Assembly: GCF_000004825.1 (NCBI RefSeq) | Contig: NW_008805086.1 | Span: forward strand, 965,410 to 1,029,409 | Source of the DNA: Heterostelium pallidum | Taxonomy: Eukaryota | Direction of reading: 5' to 3' | DNA: 64,000 nucleotides | Shown: positions 31,289 to 47,008 of the stretch, in pieces | Layout: every line of letters begins with the position of its first letter | Numbering within the stretch: position 1 is the first letter of the stretch | Notes under the pieces: model-generated | Told to the model about the DNA's origin: nothing | Seen by the model: the letters and a program-made list of their open reading frames with translations, nothing else | Database searches by the model: none | Program-made: the position numbers and the translations under genes

Positions 31289-31753
31289 ATGAAGATTGCA
31301 TTATTTTCTCTATTATTGGTTGCTTTGACATGTTTGTCAGCAGTAAACTCAACATTTGTTGTTGGTACATGTGATTCAAGCAAGTGTGGTGCCGGTCAAG
31401 TTTGTATCTGTGAAGGTGGTGTCAGTCACTGTGTCTTGTTGGATCAATGCCATGATGTTGCCATCGTCCAAACCATTGAACACAGTTGGGTTGAGAATGG
31501 TCAATCATTCACTTTATACCGTGTCCACGTCTTCAACTATGGTCCAAGAACCTTGAAGAACATTGCCATCCAAACTGATTGCACTTTGGACCCACGTGAT
31601 CAAAACTCTGTCTGGAACATCGAATATCACAATGGATTCTTCTCACTTCCATCATATGGTCAAGGTATTGCCACTGGTAAAGAGTTTGTCTTTGGATACA
31701 TTGATCGTGGTATGCGTTCTCCAAATCTCTTTATCCGTGCTCTCCAATATTAA
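31289..31753 (+). CDS. Small secreted Cys-rich protein with a CBM49-like carbohydrate-binding domain
   Basis: The 154-aa intronless ORF has a signal peptide (MKIALFSLLLVALTCLSAVNS) and a Cys-rich stretch. This is followed by SWVENGQSFTLYRVHVFNYGPRTLKNIAIQTD..VWNIE..GFFSLPSY..IATGKEFVFGYI, which resembles the dictyostelid CBM49 pattern. Confidence 0.7.
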   Translation: MKIALFSLLLVALTCLSAVNSTFVVGTCDSSKCGAGQVCICEGGVSHCVLLDQCHDVAIVQTIEHSWVENGQSFTLYRVHVFNYGPRTLKNIAIQTDCTLDPRDQNSVWNIEYHNGFFSLPSYGQGIATGKEFVFGYIDRGMRSPNLFIRALQY

Positions 31754-32378: not shown

Positions 32379-33682
32379 ATGGAATCAAATAATAATAACA
32401 ACAATAGTAGAGATATTTTATTTAAAGAAAGAAAAGATAAATGTCAATTTGCTAGATGGTATAGCACATTTAGACGATTGACATTTGAGAGTGTTATCAT
32501 TGAATTGCCAAAGATCGTAGTGGATTACTTGAATTCCGATCACTTCTCAACAGAGACAACATCGTTCCCAAAGTACAAGTTGGACGATTATGAAGATGAC
32601 ATTGGTGACGATGATGAACAATGGTCCACTCCTGTAGGAAAGAGTAAAGAATCATCAATGTTTAATAAGAAATATTATCAATCTTATGATTCAGATGATG
32701 ATACTGATGATTCAGATGATGATAAAGTAGAAGATAATAATAACAATAATAGAACCAATGAAGTAAAGATAGATCCACAACAACTAAAGAGTTTTACAGA
32801 CAAAATAGATGAAGCAATCAAGAAACTAGGTGGTGAATGTGTTCCAAAGTTGAATTGGTCATCACCGAAAGACGCTACTTTCATGAACATCCACGCCAGT
32901 CTAAGATGTTCTAGCAGTTCAGATATACTATTACTCCTAAAGAGTTCTGATTTTATTAATCATGATCTCGCTCAATTGTAAGTAGGGTAGAACCATCCAC
33001 AACAACTGACAGCATTATGGAAATTACAAACTAACAATCACAACATTTTAGTGATAATGATATTAAAGATTTACAACCAGATGATATTACACCACTAACA
33101 TTGGTACTGAGAAGATGGGCAAACGTAAATATTGCATTGGAATTTAGATGTTTCATTAAAGACAATCAATTGATTGCAATTAGTCAACGTGATACCTCTG
33201 CATTCTTTGATTTCCTGCCAGCAAAGAAAGAATTAATACAATCAAAGATCAAATCATTCGCAGAACAACATATTATTAACAAATTCAATGATGTTTCATG
33301 TAAGTTGATCAAATAACAATCAATTAGATAGCAATTTAATTAACTTTATTATTATTATTACGTTTGTTTAGATTGTTTCGATGTATGTTTCTTGGATACC
33401 AATTTAAATACGGTTACATTGATGGATTTCAATCCGATTCATCCTTCGACAGACAGTTTACTTTTTGATTGGTACGAGTTGTTCCCAGAGGAATTGGAAC
33501 ATCAAGAGATTGATGAATCTGTGAAACCATTGGAACATTTCGAATTTAGAATAGTGGAGAGCAACGAAGGTATAAGACCTAATCTATCAATGTCAAGTCG
33601 ATTACCAAGTGATCTTGTCAACATGCAATCAACTTCTGAAATCAATGAAATGTTATCGAAATTTAAAGATCACAAAATATAA
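32379..33682 (+). CDS. cdc123: Cell division cycle protein 123 (CDC123/D123 family)
   Basis: Three exons (32379-32977, 33052-33299, 33372-33682) with phases 2 and 1. Motifs are CQFARWY, PKLNWSSPKDATFM, LVLRRWANVNIALEFRCFIKDNQLIAISQRD and CFDVCFLD..VTLMDFNP..TDSLLFDW. Confidence 0.9.
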
Positions 33683-33785: not shown

Positions 33786-34969
33786 TTATATCTGATCTTC
33801 AGGTGATAACTCTAAGAATGTAGCATAACTTGTTTGTGTTCCGTATCTAGTTACACAGATCGCTGCAACATTGCATGCTCGTTCTATAGACTCTGCCAGT
33901 GGTAACATGCTGGTGGTTAGGTAGTGTGCCAATGCACCGATAAAAGAATCACCAGCACCGGTCGTGTCAACTACAGGTTTACCCATGGTGGCATTATCAC
34001 GATGTTTAATATGCTGATATTTATCTATAGATAGTCTGTTCACCAAAACACATCCTTTTGCACCGAGAGTAACAATTACATCGCTAACCATTATATGTAA
34101 TCTGAGCAACTCACGAGCTCCATGATGTACTGACTCTAGATTCTCGACATCCACTTGATGATCATTCGACAACTTGATCAGTTCAACTTCATTAACAATT
34201 AAAATATCTACGCAACCCAACATATTCATCAACATCTCTGTGTCATTTGTAACTGGTGATACATTTAATATTGTTTTACACTATTATAGATATTAATTTT
34301 TTTAAAGAGAAATGAAATATGAAGGATTTTAGTTTGTTTTTTTTCTTTTAGATATAATATTCTACTGATATAACAATAACATTGTACAATTCAACTAGTT
34401 ACCTTTGATTCTTTTGCAATTGATAATGCTTTCAATGTTGTCTTTAGATTTACTTCAAGTTGACAGAGAAGATAGGATGCATTTTGTATGGTTTTAGTTG
34501 CTTCTATTACATCTTGCTCTCCTAGTAGATCGTTTGATCCACCGACTATAATGATGTTGTTTGATCCCTCTTTGTCGACGGTGATAGATGCACAACCTGA
34601 AGGAACACCAGGTACAATATTTACATGTTCAACAGAGACACCTCTAATCTTAAAGTTATTCAATGTATTATTACCAAATACATCGTCACCCAGCTTTGTA
34701 ATTATATACTATAGTAGTAGTGGTAGTGGTATAATATGTAATACTATATTAATATTCAAATGAATCAATAGCTAAACAACTCTACTACCTACAGATTTTG
34801 TGTTTAATAGAGATGCTTGAACTGCTTGGTTGGCAGCTTTGCCACCAAACGACACTTTGAAATCAGTTCCCTTTATAGTTTCACCAATAACAGGGATTCT
34901 GTCACAATAAGTAAACATATCCCAATTGGATGCACCAATTACACAAATATATCTCTCTTGTCGTTCCAT
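33786..34969 (-). CDS. rbsk: Ribokinase (PfkB family)
   Basis: Three exons (34793-34969, 34403-34708, 33786-34280), all phase 0. Motifs are VIGASNWDM, FGGKAANQAV and DTTGAGDSFIGALAHYL. I took the start at MERQERY (34969) rather than the upstream poly-I Met of the ORF track. Confidence 0.9.
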
Positions 34970-35790
34970 TTTCTTTATTATTATCAAAATATATCTAAAC
35001 AAAAAGTTTTAACTCATTTTTTTGTTATTTTTTTTTCATTGCAACATTTTTTGTTAAAAAAAAATTACAATGATAATGGATAGTGGTGCAACATGTTCAA
35101 CAGCAATCAATAGTTGAATAAGAATATTTAGAGTGTCATCAATTGTTTAATAATGTATTACATTGTTCTAGTTTATTTTGATATTTGATGATGTAATACC
35201 GCGTTTTAGATATTTTTAGTCAACCTGGGTTGTTCCCAAAATCAAAAAAGAATTGTTCAAAAATACGACATGCAACAGAAAAAAAATCTTAAACCTCTAT
35301 CGAAAAGTTTGTCTCCCTTTTTTAATTTCGTTTTTAAAAAAAAAAACGGATCTTTGTTAATTTTATACCTTTTTTTTTTAATTACTTTTGTTTCAACATT
35401 TCAAATCTTATTATCAAAAATATTATATAATGATATATTAATATTTCAAATCGATATTAAATAACAATCTTAAATATTAGTTTGTTTTACTTTTTTTTTT
35501 TTTAAAATCAAAAATAAATAATATCTTTTTTTCTTCTTTTGTTGTTTTTTCCCATTGTATAGACACCATTTCACACCACACATCTCACCTTATTTATACT
35601 ATTTCTTAAGAACGACAAAGTACATACACATCACATACTCTTTTTATAATTTAGAGTAAATATAAAAATATAGTGTATTATTTAGTTATAGATACAGATA
35701 TATATATATATAAATAGTCTCTTTTTTTTTTTTTTTGTTTTTGTTTTTTTTATTTATAGTGTTTATATATTATTTTTTTTGTTTTGATCA

Positions 35791-38700
35791 ATGACAAAAA
35801 AAGTTACCATTTCAGAATAGGGTGATCGTATTCACTTTTATAATCACAATTTTCACTATATTATCATCTATATACTTTATCAATGGAGGTATCGGTTTGA
35901 ATGGAAATGGCGTTGAATCAAACAACAATAATCAAAATGTCGAGGAAACTGCAAAGGATCTAATGGGTAGAAATTTAAATCAATTGCATCCATCGCTGAG
36001 GCTTCAGTTGGATGAGGAGGATCAGACTTTTCAACAGCTAGAGAATTTCAAACTCACTGGAAAAGACGAGCAACTTCAGTGGTCGACCGCTACATTTCAA
36101 AGGAAGCGTCGTGTTCTAATTGTCACCACTGAGATCGAGGGACCTGTACTCGGTGGAGGCATCGGAACTGCCTACACTGCATTGTCGCAACGACTCGCCG
36201 ACGATGGACACATCGTAACAGTGTTGGTAATCAACTACATCAAAAAGATGACTGCCACACACTGGCAGGAGTTGTATGCCACCAAGAAAATCACTATCGA
36301 ATTCCTCTCACCAGAGACTACCGACATCCTTGGATGCACCGGGCCATGCATTCGCAGTTACCACGCCTACAAATGGATTGCCGAGCGTGAGCATCTCTAC
36401 GATGTTCTTCACTTCCACGACAACGGTGGTATCGCCTATTTCTCTGCGTTGGCACGTAGCCAAGGAATTTCATTGCAAAAGTCAATCGTTGTCGTCGGTG
36501 GACATGGACCACATCTCTGGGAGAGAACTGCAAACTCTGCGAATCTCGACGACGGTAAACACTTTGAGGTAGATTACCTCGAGAAGCGTTCAGTGGAACT
36601 CTCCGACTGGCTGATATCGCCATCCAACTACATGCTAAACTGGATGCGTAGATCCGGTTGGGTTCTACCTAAAAACTCATATGTACACCAGAATCTTTTG
36701 CCAGGTACCATCATGTCGCAGCCAAGCGTCGATAAATTGATTGCACATTCATTCGATGAAATCATTTTCTTTGGTCGATTGGAGGCAAGAAAAGGACTCG
36801 ATATCTTCTTGAGAGCGTTGGATACACTACACAAGGAGTTGGACGAAGCCAATATCTTGGTTACATTTCTAGGTGCAAATACAAAGCTACCAGAGGTCAA
36901 TATGCTAGCGGATCAGTATATCGTTTCAAAGTGTCGTTTGTTGAATATGAATTGTCGGGTTTTGATTGGAAGAACTCATACCGAAGCAATCGCGTATCTC
37001 ACCGATCTATCGGATCGTAAGCTCGTCGTTATTCCATCGCCAATCGATAACTCACCCAACACAGTTTTGGAGTGTATGACACATAATCTAGCTTTCATTT
37101 CAACCAAAGTCGGTGGTATTCCAGAGTTGATCGATCCCAAAGATAGAGCACGTACTCTCTTTTCACCTGCACCAAACTCACTGATCCGAAAGATTCGTGA
37201 GTCCATCAGAGATGGTGTCTATCCAGCACGTATGGCCAAAGATGAATGGTTCAGACACAAGATTTGGAGCAATTGGCACTCCGTTGTACCAATACCTACA
37301 CAACAGCCACTCGTTACCAAACCCACCAATCTAGTGACTGTGGTACTCGTTCACAACGGCAACAACGACATTCAAGTGGAAACCAATCTAATGGCACTCG
37401 ACCAAAAGCAGAATCAATATCGTTTGGAGGTTGTAATTGCCACAGTTAGACCACTTCTCCAGATTCAAGAGTATCAATATATTAAAGTTAGTCAAGTCGA
37501 GATATCCGAATATCTCGTTTCACCAATCAATTTCCAGCCATGGAACAGTGAACCGATTGTCTCTTCATTCCATGGCGAATTCATTCTGTTTGTGGATCAA
37601 GAAGATTGGCTCAGCTCAAGGACACTCAATGAAATGTTGAATGTTGCCAAACATACCGGTGCACATATGGTATCGTCTTCGATTGGACATCCTGCCATGG
37701 GTGAAGATATCAGCTCTGTATATATGGGATGCATTGGAATGCCAGGAATGATGTACAACTGCTATGGTAGCAACAATGTACTGATGAACAAACTACTTTT
37801 ACATACAATCACTAAAAACTATACGAATGAAGAGATTGAAGATGAATTTGACTATGGTGGACCATGGGAGCTCTACTCTGAAGCAACCAACCGTGGATTC
37901 TCATTGGAAACCATTCCAAAAGCATTGTTTTTCACTTCAAGAACTGAAATCGATTTATCCAGTACTTATAATCAAGAATTAAGAGTTTTAAAATATTTCC
38001 AAGGTAAAAATTATTATTTAGCAAAACATTTATAAAAGCAATAGTTTATTAACTTTTATTGTTATCAACAGCATTATTACCACCATCTTTAGGTATTTCA
38101 CCACTTGCAACAAGACATTTCCTAATATCAAAGGGTTACTATTTAAATGAAATCAATACACAGACACAAAAAGTTAAACAATTGGAAGGACAAGTGGCGA
38201 AATATCAAATCATTGAAAAGAGAGAGGAACAATTTTTTGATTTGAATGAAACTTCATCTCAAGAGAGTTCCTGTGTCGTTTCAAACTACATGGAATCCAG
38301 AAAGCATATTGGAATGGTTTTCATTCGTGGTCACGAGAAATCAGGTACCTCATGGTTGAAAAAAGTAGTTGGTCTTCATCCAAGAATCCAGTTGCACCAA
38401 CAGGAATTCCACTTCCATATCGTCGAGGATGCCATTGAAAAATTTACAGATCATCCATGGGCTGCAAGTAACGAGCCTTATGTTTCTTACACCCGTAAGT
38501 GGTACAAATCATTCGTACGTAATCTTTTATTGGCTGGAGTATCACCACCATCGGCATCGATCATCAACTATGTCGGTGAGAAGACACCATCACCATTGGC
38601 ACCGATTATCTCTGGTTCCAAATATATTCTAATCATTAGAGATGGTAGAGATGTTGTTGTATCACTCTTTTGGCATTATGTCAGACTCGGTGGATTCGAG

Positions 38701-39222
38701 AACTGGTGTGGTGGCTTCTCAAAGCAACTGGTTGAGCCAGGCTATGTGAGATCCTACAACCAGGATACCAGTTATTTCAAGAAGAATCCAGAACATTTGT
38801 TGGAAAAAGAAGTCTGCTTCCGACATGTCGTTAGAAGCTGGGCAAAGAGAATCAGAGAGGATCTCCAAACCATCGATGACCTCAAGAAAAACCCAGCTGC
38901 TGAAGTCTATGTTTTGCGTTACGAAGAGCTACACCGTGATACTGATGCCATAAGAACAGAGATGTATCAATTCCTCGGACTAGATCCAGCAGAAGCACAA
39001 GAGCTATCGGTCGAAGGCAAAACAATTGCTGGTGGCTTCCAGGAGGAGGGCGAAAAGAAAAACAAATTCTTTAGAAAAGGAGAGATTGGTGATTGGCAGA
39101 ATTACTTTAGTTATGCAAACAAAGTTTGGTTCAAAGAAGAGGCTGGACATGAACTCATCCAACTTGGTTATGAACTAGATCATCTTTGGGTAAAGAATAC
39201 CAAACTATCTCCTATTAAATAA
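35791..39222 (+). CDS. Type II membrane protein fusing GT4 glycosyltransferase, GT2-like glycosyltransferase and PAPS-dependent sulfotransferase domains
   Basis: Two exons, ~35791/35822-38003 and 38072-39222, with a 68-nt phase-1 intron (CAA G|GTAAAA..ACAG). There is a TM anchor, IVFTFIITIFTILSSIYFI. GT4 motifs are RVLIVTTEIEGPVLGGGIGTA, GRLEARKGLD and STKVGGIPELI. GT2-like motifs are VTVVLVHNG and FILFVDQEDWL. Sulfotransferase motifs are GHEKSGTSWL (5'-PSB), IIRDGRDVVVS (3'-PB) and FRKGEIGDWQNYF. The ATG at 35791 is one base out of frame with the ORF (see findings). Confidence 0.8.
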
Positions 39223-41456: not shown

Positions 41457-42875
41457 ATGGAAGATGTATACAATATTGAGAAGAGAAAACAAATATTTGA
41501 AGTTTTATCAAATAATTTAGAAATAAGATATTTAAAGTATATATGGGTGGATCTATCAAATTTTATTCATGTAAAAGTTATTAGAACCAAGTATTTATTG
41601 GAGCACCAATGCAAATATTTTTCGTTTGGTACCAACTTTCTGTTTTTGAGATGCTTTGACAATCTTTCCAATGTTATAATTCCACCAGAGGACAAAGAAA
41701 CTTACTTTGTTCCAGATTGGAATACATTCCATGTGAATTCTTATCAAAAGGGAATTGCAAGTGTGTTTGGTTCGATCTATAGAATGAAGAAAGTAGTTTT
41801 AGGAAATGGAAATTCGTTCATACAGTGTGAACCATATGAACACTGTCCAAGAAATATTTTAAAAAAAGCAGAGAATACACTGTCGGAAATTCATATTGAT
41901 GGTGAAACTGGTATCAGCTTGAAAGGTTCATTTGAAGAAGAGTTCTATTTATTACCATTGGATACACCAATACCTGAAGAGGCTAATTCCGAATTAATAC
42001 CTGGATACAGTTTATACCATGTGGATGATCACATAGAGATCCTAATTGATATGGCCAAACACTTGGAGGATCAAGGTGTGCCGAATGAACAGATTCTGCA
42101 TGAGGGTGCACCAAACCAATTTGAAATAACAGTGCCTTACACATCGATCATGGAAGCATGTGATCGTCATATCATTGTGAGAAGTACAGTTCATGCTATT
42201 GCCAAGAAACATGGATATCAAGCCACTTTTATTCCTAAACCATTTAAAAACGACCTTGGAACTGGTTGCCATGTTCATCTTTCTCTGTGGAACAAAGACA
42301 AGAATTTAGTACCAAATCTAACTCATTCAACTAATTTATCAAACATTGCAAGACGTGCGATCAGTGGTATATTGCATCATGCTAGAGGTCTAACTGCTAT
42401 TTTCAATGCGTCTGTAAACTCATATCAACGTTTGAAGCCTATGACCTGGTCTGGAGGTGCCATTTGCTGGGGTGTCAATAATAAGGAATCGATGATTCGT
42501 GTTCCACACAGTGCATACACATTCAGTAACTTTGAATTGAAATCATTGGATCATAGTGCCAATGTGTATGTGGCAATGGCAGCCACTATATATGCAATGG
42601 TTGATGGAATGATTAGTGATAGTATAAAGATGCTTCCTCCAATTACCAAATACCCGTGCCAATATACTGACAGTGAAAGAGATAACCTAGGAATAAGACA
42701 GTTTCCTAAAACTCTTGGAGAAGCAATCAAAGAACTTGGCTCAGATACCTTTTTGATCAAAATGATGGGTTCCGAATTTATAGAGACCTTTTGTGCTATC
42801 AGACAATTCGAACAAGATTTTCTTAAAGGCAAGAGTGATTATGAAATTATTAAACTCTATTACAAACTGTATTAA
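41457..42875 (+). CDS. Type-I glutamine synthetase-like ATP-dependent amide ligase, tandem copy 1
   Basis: An intronless 472-aa ORF. Motifs are GSFEEEFYLL, EGAPNQFEITVPY, ATFIPKPF..GTGCHVHLSLW, NSYQRLKP and WG..NKESMIRVP. Confidence 0.9.
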   Translation: MEDVYNIEKRKQIFEVLSNNLEIRYLKYIWVDLSNFIHVKVIRTKYLLEHQCKYFSFGTNFLFLRCFDNLSNVIIPPEDKETYFVPDWNTFHVNSYQKGIASVFGSIYRMKKVVLGNGNSFIQCEPYEHCPRNILKKAENTLSEIHIDGETGISLKGSFEEEFYLLPLDTPIPEEANSELIPGYSLYHVDDHIEILIDMAKHLEDQGVPNEQILHEGAPNQFEITVPYTSIMEACDRHIIVRSTVHAIAKKHGYQATFIPKPFKNDLGTGCHVHLSLWNKDKNLVPNLTHSTNLSNIARRAISGILHHARGLTAIFNASVNSYQRLKPMTWSGGAICWGVNNKESMIRVPHSAYTFSNFELKSLDHSANVYVAMAATIYAMVDGMISDSIKMLPPITKYPCQYTDSERDNLGIRQFPKTLGEAIKELGSDTFLIKMMGSEFIETFCAIRQFEQDFLKGKSDYEIIKLYYKLY

Positions 42876-43302
42876 TAATAATAAAGGTAGATTTCTTGGT
42901 TCTAGAAAGAAAAAATAATTTTAAAAAAAAAATTTTTCATCAACAATTTTTTAAAAAAAAAAGGAATCATTATTTGAAAAGATGTTACTTTGTGTATTCA
43001 TAAATCTGAGACAAAAAAATTGGTGAAAAAGATCACTTTTCAGTTTTTTTTTTCTTGAACCAATCATAAATTAAATGGGCAGTTGAACAAAAATGAAAAT
43101 ATTTGTTTGTGTTTAGTTGTAAATTGGCATTGGTTGAAAAGATCCGGGAACCATGTTTTATTATTATAATCTATCTATTCGAGGTTTCTGCTTATTGTTC
43201 GTAAAGTTGAACAAAAGGTGTACCACAGACATATAAATAAGAAAATCAATCTACAACAATTTTAAATTACATAACTTTTTTAAATCAGTGTTTATTCAAC
43301 AA

Positions 43303-44724
43303 ATGGAAGAATTGAATAATGAAAAAAGAAAACAAATATTTGAATATTTATCAATACACACAGAAATTAGATATCTAAAATATATTTGGATTGATCTTTC
43401 CAATGTTATACACTCGAGAATCATCAGAACAAAATATTTGCTAGAAGAACGATGCCAGCACTTCCCTATTCTCATTACCTTCCTTTATTGGCGATGCTTC
43501 GACGGAAGAATAAGTCCAGCGGTTGATTATAAACTCGAAGAATCTGAAGCTTACTTTTTGCCAGATTGGGGAACATTCCAATTGGTTTCATATCAAGCAG
43601 AGACTGCACAGGTTTTTGGGTACATTTATCAAATTAAGAGAGTGGCTCAGCCTGATGGTGCTTTCAAGACTCACTATGATGCCGTGGATTGTTGTCCTAG
43701 AACCATGCTGAAGAATGCAGAGAAAATACTTTCGGAGATCCATATCGATGGTGCAACTGGTATCAGCTTGAAAGGTTCCTTCGAAGAAGAATTCTATCTA
43801 CTTCCTTTTGGTACGTCATTGCCTGAAGATTCTAGTTATGAATACAGACCATGCTTTAGCCTTTATCATACAGATGAATACTTTGAGATTCTAACTGACA
43901 TTGAGAAACACTTGGAGGCTCAGGGTGTGCCAAATGAACAGATTATGACCGAAGGTGGACCAAACCAATTTGAAATAACAGTGCCTTACACATCGATCAT
44001 GGAAGCATGTGATCGTCATATTATCATCAGAAGTACAGTTCATGCAATTTCCAAGAAACATGGATATCAAGCCACTTTTATTCCCAAACCTTACAAGAGT
44101 TACCCTGGAACTGGTTGTCATGTTCACCTTTCTCTGTGGAACAGAACCAATAATTTAGTTCCAAATCTCAGTCATCCAAATGGTCTGTCAAACATTGCAA
44201 GACGTGCGATCAGTGGTATATTGCATCATGCCAGTGGTCTGGCTGCTATTTTCAATCCAAATGTAAACTCATATCAACGTTTGAAACCATTGACTATTTC
44301 AGGTAATTTTATATGCTGGGGTATCGGTAATAAGGAAGCGATGATTCGAGTTCCACCATGTTCTTATACATTCAGTAACTTTGAATTGAAATCAATGGAT
44401 CATAGTGCCAACCCGTATTTGGCATTAGCTGCAACTATCTATGCAATGGTCGATGGAATGATTAGTGATAATATTAGGATACTTCCCAACATTCCAACAT
44501 TTCCAACACTCTACACCGAAATAGAAAAAGAGGAACTGGGCATTAGAGAAAATCCTAGATCTCTTGACGAAGCAATCAAAGAACTTAGATCAGATACCTT
44601 TTTGATCAACATGATGGGTTCTGAATTTATCAAGAACTTTTGTGCTATTAGACAGTTCGAACAAGATTTTCTTAGTGGCAAAACTAATCATGAAACCGCC
44701 AAACTCTATTACAAATTGTATTAA
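43303..44724 (+). CDS. Type-I glutamine synthetase-like ligase, tandem copy 2
   Basis: Intronless and collinear with copy 1, with the same motif set. I took the start at the first ATG (MEELNNEKRKQIF); the ORF track begins at an upstream GTG. Confidence 0.9.
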   Translation: MEELNNEKRKQIFEYLSIHTEIRYLKYIWIDLSNVIHSRIIRTKYLLEERCQHFPILITFLYWRCFDGRISPAVDYKLEESEAYFLPDWGTFQLVSYQAETAQVFGYIYQIKRVAQPDGAFKTHYDAVDCCPRTMLKNAEKILSEIHIDGATGISLKGSFEEEFYLLPFGTSLPEDSSYEYRPCFSLYHTDEYFEILTDIEKHLEAQGVPNEQIMTEGGPNQFEITVPYTSIMEACDRHIIIRSTVHAISKKHGYQATFIPKPYKSYPGTGCHVHLSLWNRTNNLVPNLSHPNGLSNIARRAISGILHHASGLAAIFNPNVNSYQRLKPLTISGNFICWGIGNKEAMIRVPPCSYTFSNFELKSMDHSANPYLALAATIYAMVDGMISDNIRILPNIPTFPTLYTEIEKEELGIRENPRSLDEAIKELRSDTFLINMMGSEFIKNFCAIRQFEQDFLSGKTNHETAKLYYKLY

Positions 44725-45523: not shown

Positions 45524-47008
45524 ATGGATGAAATTCGAAACGAAGAAAAAAAGAAACAAGTTTTTAGCTTTCTTTCAAAACATAGTGAAATTAGATTTCT
45601 TCGTGTTTTGTGGGTGGACCTGTGCAATTTAATCAGATGTAAATCAGTTCGTACCAAATGGCTTCTTGAGAATGACTTTAACTATGTATGTGTTACCAAT
45701 GCTTGTATGTCGGTGCGAGTATTCGATGATGTCATCATTGAAGAAGCTGCACCATCCACTCAGTTTGGAGAAGTCTTTTTGGTGCCAGATTGGAGCACAT
45801 TCCATGTCAACTCTTATTCAGGTGGTACAGCCTCTGTGTTTGGTGCTTTCTATACCTCTGCTCAGGATTCCACTTTGCCAACAACCAAAACTCAAGGATC
45901 ATCTTCACAAGCAACCGAGCATGCTAACAGCTCAATGATCACAAAGAATAAATTGAGTCCATGGCCATACTGTCCTAGACAAACACTATACAGAGTTCAA
46001 AAGATGTTGGCGGATATCAATGTCGGTGGGATCCAGGGACTTGAAGTTAAAGGTTCGTTCGAAGAGGAGTTCTATTTGTTATCGAAAAGCAATCCCCTCG
46101 AGCCTTTTGATCCATATTCATTTGCAAGTGTGATATCACTAAATCAATACCAAACAATACTTGACGAAATTGCACAGAACCTCGAACTACAGGGTGTTCC
46201 CGTAGAACAAATGCTTGCCGAGTCTGGACCAGCCCAATTTGAAATGACCATTCCTTACACCTCTATCATGGAGGCATGCGATCGTCACATCATCTTCCGT
46301 CAAACCGTACACGCCATCGCCGATAAGTTTGGACTGCAAGCATCATTCCTCCCCAAAGTCCATCTGAATCGTGCTGGTAGTGGTTGTCACGTGCATCTCT
46401 CACTCTGGCAAGCCGGAAACAATCTTGTTCCCGATGCATCCGACATTGACACTGGAATTTCAGTGCTAGCCAAGCGCGCCATTGCAGGTATTCTCACTCA
46501 TGCCAAGGCAATGACGCCCATACTCAATGCTAATTTGAACTCATATCATCGTCTCCAACCAAATTGTTGGTCTGGAAACACAATTACCTGGGGACTGGAC
46601 AACAAAGAGGCAATGGTTCGTATTCCTTCGTCTGCTAGCAAGTCGACCAAGGGAATCACCAACTTTGAAGTGAAAACACTCGATCACACTGCCAATCCAT
46701 ATATGGCGATCGCAGCGATCATCTGTGCTATGGCAGATGGATTAATCAGTGAGACTATTACAATGACACCACCTACCTCTGTCAACCCATCGTCTCTAAC
46801 ACAGGAACAACGTGAAGCACTCAGAATCGATCAGTTGCCAACATCACTTGAAAATGCATTAAAAGCACTCAAATCAGATGATTATCTTCTCAATATGATT
46901 GGTAGCAAGATATGCACTTCATACATTGCACACCGTCAACACGAAATAACACTTTTAAAAGATTGCTCTCATAGAGATATAATTGAAAGATATTATAAAC
47001 TATTTTAA
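45524..47008 (+). CDS. Type-I glutamine synthetase-like ligase, tandem copy 3 (more divergent, with an S/T-rich insertion)
   Basis: An intronless 494-aa ORF. Motifs are GSFEEEFYLL, SGPAQFEMTIPY, GSGCHVHLSLW, NSYHRLQP and WGLDNKEAMVRIP. There is an extra AQDSTLPTTKTQGSSSQATEHANSS segment in the N-terminal domain. Confidence 0.9.
   Translation: MDEIRNEEKKKQVFSFLSKHSEIRFLRVLWVDLCNLIRCKSVRTKWLLENDFNYVCVTNACMSVRVFDDVIIEEAAPSTQFGEVFLVPDWSTFHVNSYSGGTASVFGAFYTSAQDSTLPTTKTQGSSSQATEHANSSMITKNKLSPWPYCPRQTLYRVQKMLADINVGGIQGLEVKGSFEEEFYLLSKSNPLEPFDPYSFASVISLNQYQTILDEIAQNLELQGVPVEQMLAESGPAQFEMTIPYTSIMEACDRHIIFRQTVHAIADKFGLQASFLPKVHLNRAGSGCHVHLSLWQAGNNLVPDASDIDTGISVLAKRAIAGILTHAKAMTPILNANLNSYHRLQPNCWSGNTITWGLDNKEAMVRIPSSASKSTKGITNFEVKTLDHTANPYMAIAAIICAMADGLISETITMTPPTSVNPSSLTQEQREALRIDQLPTSLENALKALKSDDYLLNMIGSKICTSYIAHRQHEITLLKDCSHRDIIERYYKLF

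Follow-up and report, generated by a model that had tools for sequence, protein, structure and literature searches.

Positions 35,791 to 39,222 of the 64,000-nucleotide window (the whole stretch of DNA that was analysed) hold a forward-strand gene of Heterostelium album PN500, the region encoding GenBank EFA82853.1 (P0001), a "putative glycosyltransferase", with 100% identity. Other genes in the window encode a PfkB kinase, a CBM49 protein, D123 and three glutamine-synthetase-like proteins, for which no functional link is suggested, and no tRNA genes were found in the window. Alignments identify the gene as the ortholog of Dictyostelium discoideum gtr1 (DDB_G0274373). Full-length gtr1 orthologs are present in nine further dictyostelid entries (47-57% identity), and D. 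purpureum P0007 (DICPUDRAFT_42846) aligns collinearly with the H. album query at 51% identity and 91% query coverage; D. purpureum protein 42846 is the gtr1 (DDB_G0274373) ortholog in Table S17 of PMC3188802. An mpheS-type neighbour at the D. discoideum gtr1 locus matches the synteny table of the same paper. The D. discoideum and H. album proteins (47% identity) align over their full length and share domain order, intron position and phase and an N-terminal anchor, whereas the D. discoideum protein is longer through low-complexity inserts.

The architecture of this gene had been put forward as undescribed by the original prediction. However, it is already catalogued, not only in the H. album GenBank entry but also in Table S17 of PMC3188802 (2011), where gtr1 is labelled a 'candidate bifunctional GT/sulfotransferase' with CAZy GT4 only, and in PMC3534706, where gtr1 is named a putative sulfotransferase and Kil1 is the sole characterised Dictyostelium sulfotransferase. 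The GT/sulfotransferase fusion gene is thus already known via gtr1 annotation, which gives GT4 and sulfotransferase only and leaves the degenerate GT2 domain described below unmentioned. A literature search found no functional study of GT-sulfotransferase fusions or, in main texts, of DDB_G0274373. The features of the locus are as follows.

35791..35802, + strand: candidate start ATG (35791-35793) and A7 run (35796-35802), with the ATG off the main frame
35795..38003, + strand: exon for anchor, stem, GT4 and GT2-like domain; its last base opens a split Ala codon
35822..35881, + strand: single hydrophobic signal-anchor VIVFTFIITIFTILSSIYFI, the only 19-residue window with a Kyte-Doolittle value >1.6
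35882..36106, + strand: Asn/Gln-rich, poorly conserved stem (mean dictyostelid identity 0.29)
36107..37285, + strand: GT4 (GT-B) glycosyltransferase domain, above Pfam gathering scores (dictyostelid identity 0.65)
36155-36175, 36410-36430 and 36773-36796, + strand: GT4 motifs GGIGTAY, HFHDNGG and GRLEARKG
37046-37072 and 37112-37132, + strand: GT4 motifs D-x7-E and GGIPELI
37331..37942, + strand: GT2-derived GT-A domain, probably catalytically inactive, from the bacterial PF00535 position, the GT-A fold and motif loss
37331-37360, 37424-37453 and 37589-37606, + strand: GT2-like strand 1 LVTVVLVHNG, lost DDGS site and FVDQED
37754-37777 and 37853-37876, + strand: YNCYGSNN and lost catalytic-base site YGGPWELY of the GT2-like domain
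38004..38071, + strand: GT...AG intron (68 nt, 18% GC, phase 1)
38072..38304, + strand: poorly conserved linker after the intron (dictyostelid identity 0.43), with a conserved LATRHFLxSK segment and a variable charged helix-like stretch of 24 residues (38161-38232), the putative coiled coil of the original prediction
38305..39189, + strand: predicted PAPS sulfotransferase domain, from PF00685 match, motifs and fold
38332-38355 and 38398-38415, + strand: 5'-PSB loop HEKSGTSW and QQEFHF (candidate catalytic Glu)
38575-38595, 38638-38664 and 39073-39108, + strand: GEKTPSP, 3'-PB RDGRDVVVS and RKGEIGDWQNYF
39190..39222, + strand: species-specific ten-residue tail VKNTKLSPIK and stop; nearly all relatives stop at a conserved Trp just upstream

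Removal of the intron at 38004-38071 joins two ORFs in frame via the split Ala codon. The resulting single polypeptide, running from anchor through GT4, GT2-derived domain and linker to PAPS sulfotransferase as had been predicted, contains all the strings quoted for it (VTVVLVHNG, FVDQED, QTQKVKQLEGQVAKYQIIEKREEQ, KSGTSW, RDGRDVVVS and RKGEIGDWQNYF). Within the putative intron there is a stop codon in frame, and an in-frame Met (NYMESRK) is found 10 residues upstream of the sulfotransferase core, so that the locus could be read as two genes, a GT ending with TAA at 38033-38035 and a separate sulfotransferase; alternatively, the off-frame ATG at 35791 could mark a pseudogene arising from a 5' frame break. 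Against separate genes, the Tieghemostelium lacteum gene is intronless, with an uninterrupted 3456-nt ORF, and D. discoideum and P. violaceum have one intron apiece, which falls at the homologous codon and in the phase found in H. album (phase 1). Furthermore, conserved sequence is continuous across the 38003/38072 junction in all orthologs, and Physarum and Ceratiomyxa transcripts are contiguous. Against a pseudogene, the 3.3-kb frame is otherwise intact and the catalytic motifs are invariant. Use of the intron, part of the original prediction, is therefore strongly supported by ortholog comparison, and we regard both the two-gene and the pseudogene readings as highly improbable. Bacterial proteins were dropped as support for the splice junction because their similarity across it is weak (23% identity and E 0.006 in one pair, none in another); HMMER envelopes of bacterial homologs reach query residues 750-772.

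The 5' end is less straightforward. The stretch 35791-39222 had been described as one spliced ORF, but as written it is not, because the ATG at 35791 belongs to another frame, which ends at 35818 (ATG ACA AAA AAA GTT ACC ATT TCA GAA TAG), and the main ORF frame is open from 35795 only. An A6 (or A9) in place of the A7 at 35796-35802 would join this ATG to the main frame, and the A6 version would yield an N-terminus MTKKLPFQNRVIVFTF... / MTKKLPFQNRVIV..., resembling the short-tail-plus-anchor N-termini of orthologs. The GenBank model uses a start ATG at 35070 and a mini-exon near 35655-35677, a solution that looks contrived, and the H. album gene model is likely in error at its 5' end. A 13-nt 5' intron (GTTACCATTTCAG) linking ATG 35791 to the main frame was rejected as far too short. 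Given the frame problem at 35791-35821, the ATG at 35791 is listed as a candidate start codon.

The predicted N-terminal membrane anchor was recovered as the single hydrophobic segment at 35822..35881, which is flanked N-terminally by basic residues, and the same layout is seen in dictyostelid orthologs with complete N-termini. A type II topology is suggested for the gtr1 protein. The predicted layout is that of a type II protein in secretory-pathway membranes, whose short cytosolic tail and signal-anchor would put the long catalytic region in the lumen.

Both halves of the GT4 domain score above Pfam gathering cut-offs, residues 121-288 matching Glyco_transf_4 (E 2e-7) and residues 321-482 matching Glycos_transf_1 (E 3e-12); bits against cut-off are 31.5/28.5 for PF13439, 46.7/26.4 for PF00534 and 50.2/27 for PF13692. 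EX7E and the phosphate-binding GR-x4-RKG are established motifs of GT4 enzymes. Among orthologs GGIGTAY, GR-x4-RKG, D-x7-E and GGIPE are invariant, in agreement with the retaining GT4 glycosyltransferase proposed originally. GRLEARKG occupies residues 336-343, while D427-x7-E435 carries Asp in place of the first EX7E Glu, a variant also present in some bacterial homologs such as P0014 and P0017. The GT4 domain is predicted to be active, the Asp at EX7E being a point against this reading.

The domain following GT4 is harder to recognise from its sequence. Bacterial homologs carry PF00535 at this position (E ~1e-27), and against its cut-off of 23.3 bits ortholog P0003 scores above (28.0 bits) and P0002 just below (22.8), whereas the H. 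album domain alone gave no Pfam matches up to E 10. Its AF2 model (pLDDT 82.7) adopts a GT-A fold, consistent with the GT2-like assignment that had been made, and Foldseek matched the model to SpsA (E 1e-9), TarP, WrtF (TM 0.58) and RmlT in the PDB. The eumycetozoan family profile of the domain matches TarP as well (E 7e-8). An unused intron or a middle domain with no GT fold would have overturned the original prediction, and the evidence speaks against both.

The relatives of this module in bacteria are two-domain GT4-GT2 proteins (~700-800 aa, 'O-antigen biosynthesis protein'; P0013, P0015 and P0045) that are homologous to residues ~110-760 of the H. album protein at 28-33% identity (E 1e-74 to 1e-92) and likewise place GT4 before GT2. 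Their GT2 halves mostly keep DDGS, DDD and EDWEF. They have no signal-anchor, no stem and no sulfotransferase at the C-terminus, and their genes map to flagellar or ABC-transporter polysaccharide loci. GT2 and GT4 modules also occur on one polypeptide in Dictyostelium pgtB, pgtC and pgtD (Table S17, PMC3188802), where both are CAZy-recognised ('GT Family 2; GT Family 4') and a sulfotransferase is absent.

Two glycosyl transfers had been attributed to the protein. If both GT domains were active, an alpha transfer by GT4 and a beta transfer by GT2 would combine with sulfation into a complete 'sulfated glycan synthase', as might be expected from bacterial ancestors with motifs intact in both halves, from the confidently kept GT-A fold, and from a DxD site that reads D-Q-E in H. 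album (D610, E612) and D-V-D in Synstelium. The motif comparison argues otherwise. The first position of DDGS, the nucleotide-binding Asp, is acidic in none of ten eumycetozoan sequences, whereas 88 of the 93 other homologs have D or E there; TarP 'IIDDHS' aligns to eumycetozoan 'ialstl'. Likewise, the catalytic-base position is acidic in 0/10 eumycetozoan sequences (P, V, T, A, N, N, S, T, A, L), compared with Asp in 90 of the 93 others; the TarP catalytic base D181 ('EDWEF' in bacterial homologs) aligns with the Gly of eumycetozoan 'yGGaWe'. Roughly 90 of the 93 thus keep both positions that all ten eumycetozoan sequences have lost. The first Asp of DxD is kept in all ten, while the second position is acidic in two and K, Q, Y or L in the remaining eight. 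In addition to its failure to match Pfam in H. album, the domain (dictyostelid identity 0.38) evolves about twice as fast as the neighbouring GT4 and sulfotransferase domains, and gtr1 was assigned GT4 alone in Table S17 of PMC3188802. The GT2-like domain therefore looks catalytically dead, although D-Q-E in H. album and D-V-D in Synstelium count against full inactivity and some residual or unconventional activity may persist. Since the domain is without its nucleotide-binding and catalytic-base Asp, one transfer (by GT4) plus sulfation is likelier than two, and a two-transfer synthase appears decidedly unlikely.

The C-terminal domain matches Pfam Sulfotransfer_1 (PF00685) at residues 819-1085 (E 3e-16; 59.9 bits, cut-off 22) and PF13469 (30.9 bits, cut-off 27). 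KSGTSW, RDGRDVVVS and RKGEIGDWQNYF are all present, so the PAPS sulfotransferase predicted from the sequence is complete in its motifs; over 60 family members RDGR never varies, and conservation of S, G and T in the PSB loop reaches 90% or more. In its AF2 model (pLDDT 90.7) the top PDB matches are all sulfotransferases, the best being TPST1/2 (PDB 5wrj, 3ap1) and a tick TPST (TM ~0.58, E 2e-8 to ~2e-6), compared with TM ~0.4 for SULT structures. The family profile matches TPST1/2 with E ~1e-17 at 15-17% identity, aligning the PSB loop, 'gEfhf' with 'GEETRV', 'Gdrtp' with 'CNKDP' and 'ivRDGRDvlVS' with 'MVRDGRASVHS' (RDGR-x4-S). The Glu of CGEET and the Lys of NKDP have catalytic roles in TPSTs.

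SULTs, by contrast, match only the C-terminal ~80 residues of the family profile (positions ~209-290, E 1e-13 to 1e-17), where the gtr1 domain has the SULT RKGxxGDWxNYF motif and RKGEIGDWQNYF aligns with RKGxxGDWKxxF of SULT1B1. The conserved catalytic His of SULTs is absent, the matching segment being GEKTPSP (GDRTP in bacteria). By these alignments the domain belongs to a bacterial-type family whose N-terminal half aligns with TPSTs and whose C-terminal half aligns with cytosolic SULTs, and its active site is probably of the Glu/Lys kind arranged as in TPSTs. The label 'SULT-type' given originally thus holds for the C-terminal RKGxxGDWKxxF motif but not for the N-terminal half and the fold, which are nearer to TPSTs and lack the SULT His. 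Kinship to HS 3-O-sulfotransferases, prompted by the resemblance of 'GEKTP' to 'EKTP', was rejected with a profile E of ~6e-4 against ~1e-17 for TPSTs. A known type II Golgi protein likewise places two steps on one chain, a PAPS sulfotransferase and a deacetylase; its partner domain is not a glycosyltransferase, and no homology was seen beyond the sulfotransferase fold (HS sulfotransferases match the family profile at E ~6e-4 only).

Because the best structural matches are protein-tyrosine sulfotransferases, the acceptor may be something other than a glycan. The sulfotransferase would then act on protein tyrosines or an unrelated acceptor and the fusion would merely co-localise two independent activities, a reading in keeping with the TM of ~0.58 to TPST1/2 and tick TPST and with the profile alignment, in which the PSB loop, the RDGR motif and the catalytic Glu and Lys fall in register with TPST1/2. 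However, a TM of 0.58 indicates a common fold rather than a common specificity, the C-terminal half resembles small-molecule SULTs rather than TPSTs, and nothing pointing to a peptide acceptor was found. The nearest sequence relatives, moreover, are stand-alone bacterial sulfotransferases, one of which (P0140) is encoded in a polysaccharide cluster, flanked by wzt and wzm. Sulfotransferase-GT4-GT2 fusions have also arisen repeatedly in bacteria, arguing for a common glycan substrate: metagenomic, uncharacterised Sulfotransfer_3-GT4-GT2 proteins P0046 (1957 aa) and P0351 (1007 aa) likewise join a sulfotransferase to the same GT4-GT2 module, but with the sulfotransferase N-terminal and of another subfamily and with GT2 motifs intact, apparently through a fusion event independent of the eumycetozoan one. 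A non-glycan acceptor is accordingly considered unlikely. Another protein matching the sulfotransferase region, P0371 (651 aa), proved to be a bacterial tandem double sulfotransferase and not a GT fusion.

When 1.84 billion representatives were searched exhaustively, the only clusters to cover all three domains were eumycetozoan. The sequence comparisons indicate that the GT-sulfotransferase fusion is real and conserved; it is common to Dictyostelia, Physarum and Ceratiomyxa, and must on that account be old. The GT4-GT2 module and the sulfotransferase alike have their closest relatives among bacterial polysaccharide-pathway proteins, and a bacterial origin of both modules is suggested. Homologs also occur in other eukaryotes, for example Amorphochlora P0060.

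The best explanation overall, which we consider reasonably probable, is that the gene is a gtr1 ortholog whose GT4, non-catalytic GT2 and sulfotransferase domains make a sulfated glycan epitope. The intact GT4 module (GT-B, retaining) would transfer a single sugar in alpha linkage from a nucleotide-sugar donor. The GT2-derived GT-A module, with its fold kept, would most likely have no catalytic role and instead act as a scaffold or bind the acceptor, and the PAPS-dependent sulfotransferase, with all cofactor-binding motifs, would sulfate the same or a neighbouring glycan. One polypeptide would thus make the sulfated epitope. In kil1-null D. discoideum the Man-6-sulfate epitope is undetected (PMC3534706), so the gtr1 product would not be the major Man-6-sulfate antigen and may be a minor one.

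The present analysis adds to the existing annotation the cryptic degenerate GT2 domain, the TPST-like layout of the sulfotransferase active site, the bacterial affinities of both modules and the likely 5'-end error in the H. album gene model. These four additions help annotation and knockout design and do not overturn current understanding. As a conserved putative enzyme that couples a glycosyltransferase to a sulfotransferase, gtr1 offers a direct handle on sulfated glycans beyond the Kil1-dependent antigen. A more speculative proposal, which we hold to be less likely than not, is that the eumycetozoan gtr1 family arose long ago when two modules of bacterial polysaccharide pathways fused, one a GT4-GT2 glycan synthase and the other a sulfotransferase associated with wzm/wzt. 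The GT2 half would have turned into a non-catalytic acceptor-binding domain, and the product would be an as-yet-undetected sulfated glycan other than the Man-6-sulfate antigen that depends on Kil1. If true, slime moulds would have a second, self-contained sulfation pathway.

The spliced translation of the gene at 35791-39222 (+), the ortholog of Dictyostelium discoideum gtr1, had as its top match in the protein database, at 100% identity, the H. album protein P0001 (GenBank EFA82853.1 / XP_020434970.1 / UniProt D3B7W0; "putative glycosyltransferase" of Heterostelium album PN500, formerly Polysphondylium pallidum), indicating that the window is dictyostelid nuclear DNA and that the gene had been annotated before. 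Its D. purpureum counterpart (P0007 in our protein set) is protein 42846, which Sucgang et al. 2011 (PMC3188802, Table S17) gave as the ortholog of gtr1 (DDB_G0274373), a "candidate bifunctional GT/sulfotransferase" assigned to CAZy GT4. In the synteny table of that paper gtr1 adjoins mpheS; the tRNA-synt_2d/FDX-ACB neighbour that we found at the D. discoideum gtr1 locus is consistent with this. Le Coadic et al. 2013 (PMC3534706) named gtr1 as a further putative sulfotransferase, with Kil1 being the sole characterised one, and the Man-6-sulfate epitope was not detected in kil1-null cells. No functional work on gtr1 was found in the literature. The three-module gene of H. album is real, conserved and catalogued before; the domain order in the original prediction was correct, whereas its novelty did not hold in view of these two reports (PMC3188802, PMC3534706) and one of its three proposed activities is probably lost.

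The coding region consists of two long ORFs (35822-38035 and 38059-39222), whose translation contains every motif quoted in the original prediction. A 68-nt segment at their junction, from GT at 38004 to AG at 38071, has 18% GC, and splicing it out leaves the reading frame intact, with an Ala codon divided between the exons (...RVLKYFQ-A-LLPPSL...). Reading the glycosyltransferase and sulfotransferase as two separate genes instead of a fusion is effectively excluded, because the Tieghemostelium lacteum ortholog is a single uninterrupted 3456-nt ORF (identical to P0004), and D. discoideum and P. violaceum each possess one intron that matches that of H. album in both homologous codon and phase (...RVLKNFD|N|ILPP and ...RVLKHID|N|VLP). 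Furthermore, the protein alignment across the junction is continuous and conserved in all orthologs, while a Trinity transcript of Ceratiomyxa fruticulosa (P0010) covers all three regions and a single, 5'-truncated Physarum mRNA (P0121) encodes the sulfotransferase together with the linker and the C-terminal half of the GT2-like domain. The predicted 38004-38071 intron is thus borne out by ortholog gene structures, junction alignment and transcripts.

The neighbouring genes in the window are as follows.

Genes flanking the gtr1 ortholog
31289-31753, + strand: small ORF encoding a CBM49 cellulose-binding domain (E 2e-16) and an N-terminus resembling a signal peptide
32379-32981, after the CBM49 ORF: D123-family ORF
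33786-35002, - strand: PfkB-family carbohydrate kinase gene with at least one intron, divergent from the gtr1 ortholog
41457-42875, 43288-44724 and 45524-47008, + strand: three tandem paralogous glutamine synthetase ORFs of 472-494 aa (Gln-synt_C, E 1e-79 to 1e-84)

CBM49 typically occurs in the sheath and spore-coat proteins of dictyostelids, and the Gln-synt_C ORFs are a local triplication.

The 5' end differs from the proposed start at 35791, since the ATG there does not share the frame of the main ORF and reaches a TAG at 35818, while the main frame is open from 35795 only. Orthologs whose N-termini are complete begin with Met and about 8-15 residues before the hydrophobic anchor, and an A6 in place of the A7 run at 35796-35802 would yield such an ortholog-like N-terminus, MTKKLPFQNRVIVFTFIITIF... 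The GenBank model (P0001) starts at ATG 35070, which is separated by about 70 nt from the start of the divergently transcribed PfkB gene, uses a mini-exon of about 22 nt near 35655-35677 and joins the main frame at 35821. We infer that a homopolymer-length error at the A7 run is a simpler account than this mini-exon model; the region 35070-35821 suggests either such an assembly error or a mis-modelled 5' end.

As predicted, the GT4 domain is well supported, with Pfam Glyco_transf_4 (residues 121-288) and Glycos_transf_1 (321-482) both exceeding gathering thresholds and the motifs GGIGTAY, HFHD, GR-x4-RKG, D-x7-E and GGIPE invariant among orthologs. Asp at the first "EX7E" position also occurs in some bacterial homologs of otherwise canonical sequence. 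The domain gives no sign of inactivity and is predicted to be active.

The middle domain had no Pfam match, either as residues ~500-760 of the full H. album protein or by itself. About 1,300 proteins, mostly bacterial, can be aligned to residues ~110-760, and they have Pfam Glycos_transf_2 at the matching position (e.g. P0013, E 4e-27). Its AlphaFold model (pLDDT 82.7) resembles the GT-A structures SpsA, TarP, TarS, WrtF and RmlT (E about 1e-9, TM 0.5-0.58), and a profile built from eumycetozoan proteins alone found TarP at E 7e-8. "GT2-like" was therefore right as to ancestry. By contrast, in an alignment of 10 eumycetozoan proteins and 93 further homologs, the leading acidic position of "DDGS" (D/E in 88 of the 93) was acidic in none of the 10, and the "EDWEF" Asp (90 of 93) was likewise replaced by a non-acidic residue in all 10. 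The first Asp of the DxD was present in 10/10, with the second position acidic in two species only. In the HMMER alignment, TarP "IIDDHS" lies opposite "ialstl", and D181, which we take to be the TarP catalytic base, lies opposite a Gly of "yGGaWe". No other part of the protein evolves as fast, with an identity of 0.38 for this domain versus means of 0.65 for the GT4 domain (seven dictyostelids) and 0.69 for the sulfotransferase (dictyostelids). Judged by these motifs, the catalytic signature is gone, and a fold that is conserved although active-site residues have been lost suggests a pseudo-glycosyltransferase, for which scaffolding or acceptor binding is our guess. The second glycosyl transfer originally proposed is accordingly probably lost, given the missing DDGS and EDWEF acidic residues.

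Pfam Sulfotransfer_1 matched residues 819-1085 above its gathering threshold, and the 5'-PSB loop HEKSGTSW, the 3'-PB RDGRDVVVS and RKGEIGDWQNYF are intact and conserved across a 60-sequence family alignment. The model (pLDDT 90.7) best matched tyrosylprotein sulfotransferases (TM about 0.58; cytosolic SULTs about 0.4). TPST1/2 aligned to the N-terminal half of the family profile (about E 1e-17), with the PSB loop, the "GEF" Glu (TPST "GEET"), the "GEKTP/GDRTP" Lys/Arg (TPST "NKDP") and RDGR in register, whereas cytosolic SULTs aligned to its C-terminal half. The predicted completeness thus stood, but "SULT-type" did not simply apply, because the fold and N-terminal half are nearer TPST and the C-terminal half SULT; it is a complete PAPS sulfotransferase, predicted to be active, of which the sequence does not reveal the acceptor. 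Besides Physarum, its nearest relatives are stand-alone bacterial proteins (280-400 aa, 33-40% identity), from Phycisphaerales or Planctomycetes where source names are given. One of them, P0140, is flanked by wzt and wzm ABC-transporter genes with methyltransferases and a WsaF-like glycosyltransferase around, which is a polysaccharide-modification context. Another bacterial protein, P0371 (651 aa), has tandem sulfotransferase domains, the second with the full motif set of this family and the first without the PSB-loop signature. In the distant Ceratiomyxa ortholog (P0010, 1059 aa), GT4 motifs are kept, while the GT2-like and sulfotransferase-like regions are degenerate (in the sulfotransferase, AYEETGLD as PSB loop, GHISNS, and RTPLAND with RTP in place of RKG); GT4 may be the sole surviving activity in that lineage.

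When 1.84 billion cluster representatives were searched exhaustively with HMMER, all three regions were covered in eumycetozoan clusters only (P0006, P0009 and P0010), and the remaining strong matches ended at about residue 720-770. The GT4-GT2 homolog P0060 (825 aa) of the chlorarachniophyte alga Amorphochlora amoebiformis has an N-terminal hydrophobic segment and intact DDGS, DDDD and EDWEF motifs without a sulfotransferase; eukaryotes have therefore acquired the module on more than one occasion, or it predates Eumycetozoa. Of the bacterial GT4-GT2 homologs, P0015 lies in a flagellar locus (contig L004, 1-22448) among FlgH, FlgI, FlgK-like and two flagellin genes, close to which are TPR proteins, a further GT2 and a sugar epimerase/dehydratase, suggesting a role in flagellin glycosylation, and P0045 adjoins an epimerase and ABC transporters. 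Some bacterial or metagenomic proteins (P0046, 1957 aa; P0351, 1007 aa; P0260, 1141 aa) have this module fused to another kind of sulfotransferase domain, of Sulfotransfer_3 type and N-terminal, in the reverse of the eumycetozoan order; the Sulfotransfer_3-type match was 27.3 bits in P0046 (cut-off 27) and weaker in P0351. The module is thus linked to sulfation repeatedly, in favour of a functional coupling.

The significance is modest, with the gene catalogued, one activity probably lost and the function a prediction. Given its single N-terminal hydrophobic segment and preceding basic residues, the protein would be type II with a luminal catalytic region, in which GT4 would transfer a single alpha-linked sugar, the sulfotransferase would use PAPS to sulfate the same glycan or an adjacent one, and the GT-A remnant may hold the two together or aid acceptor binding.
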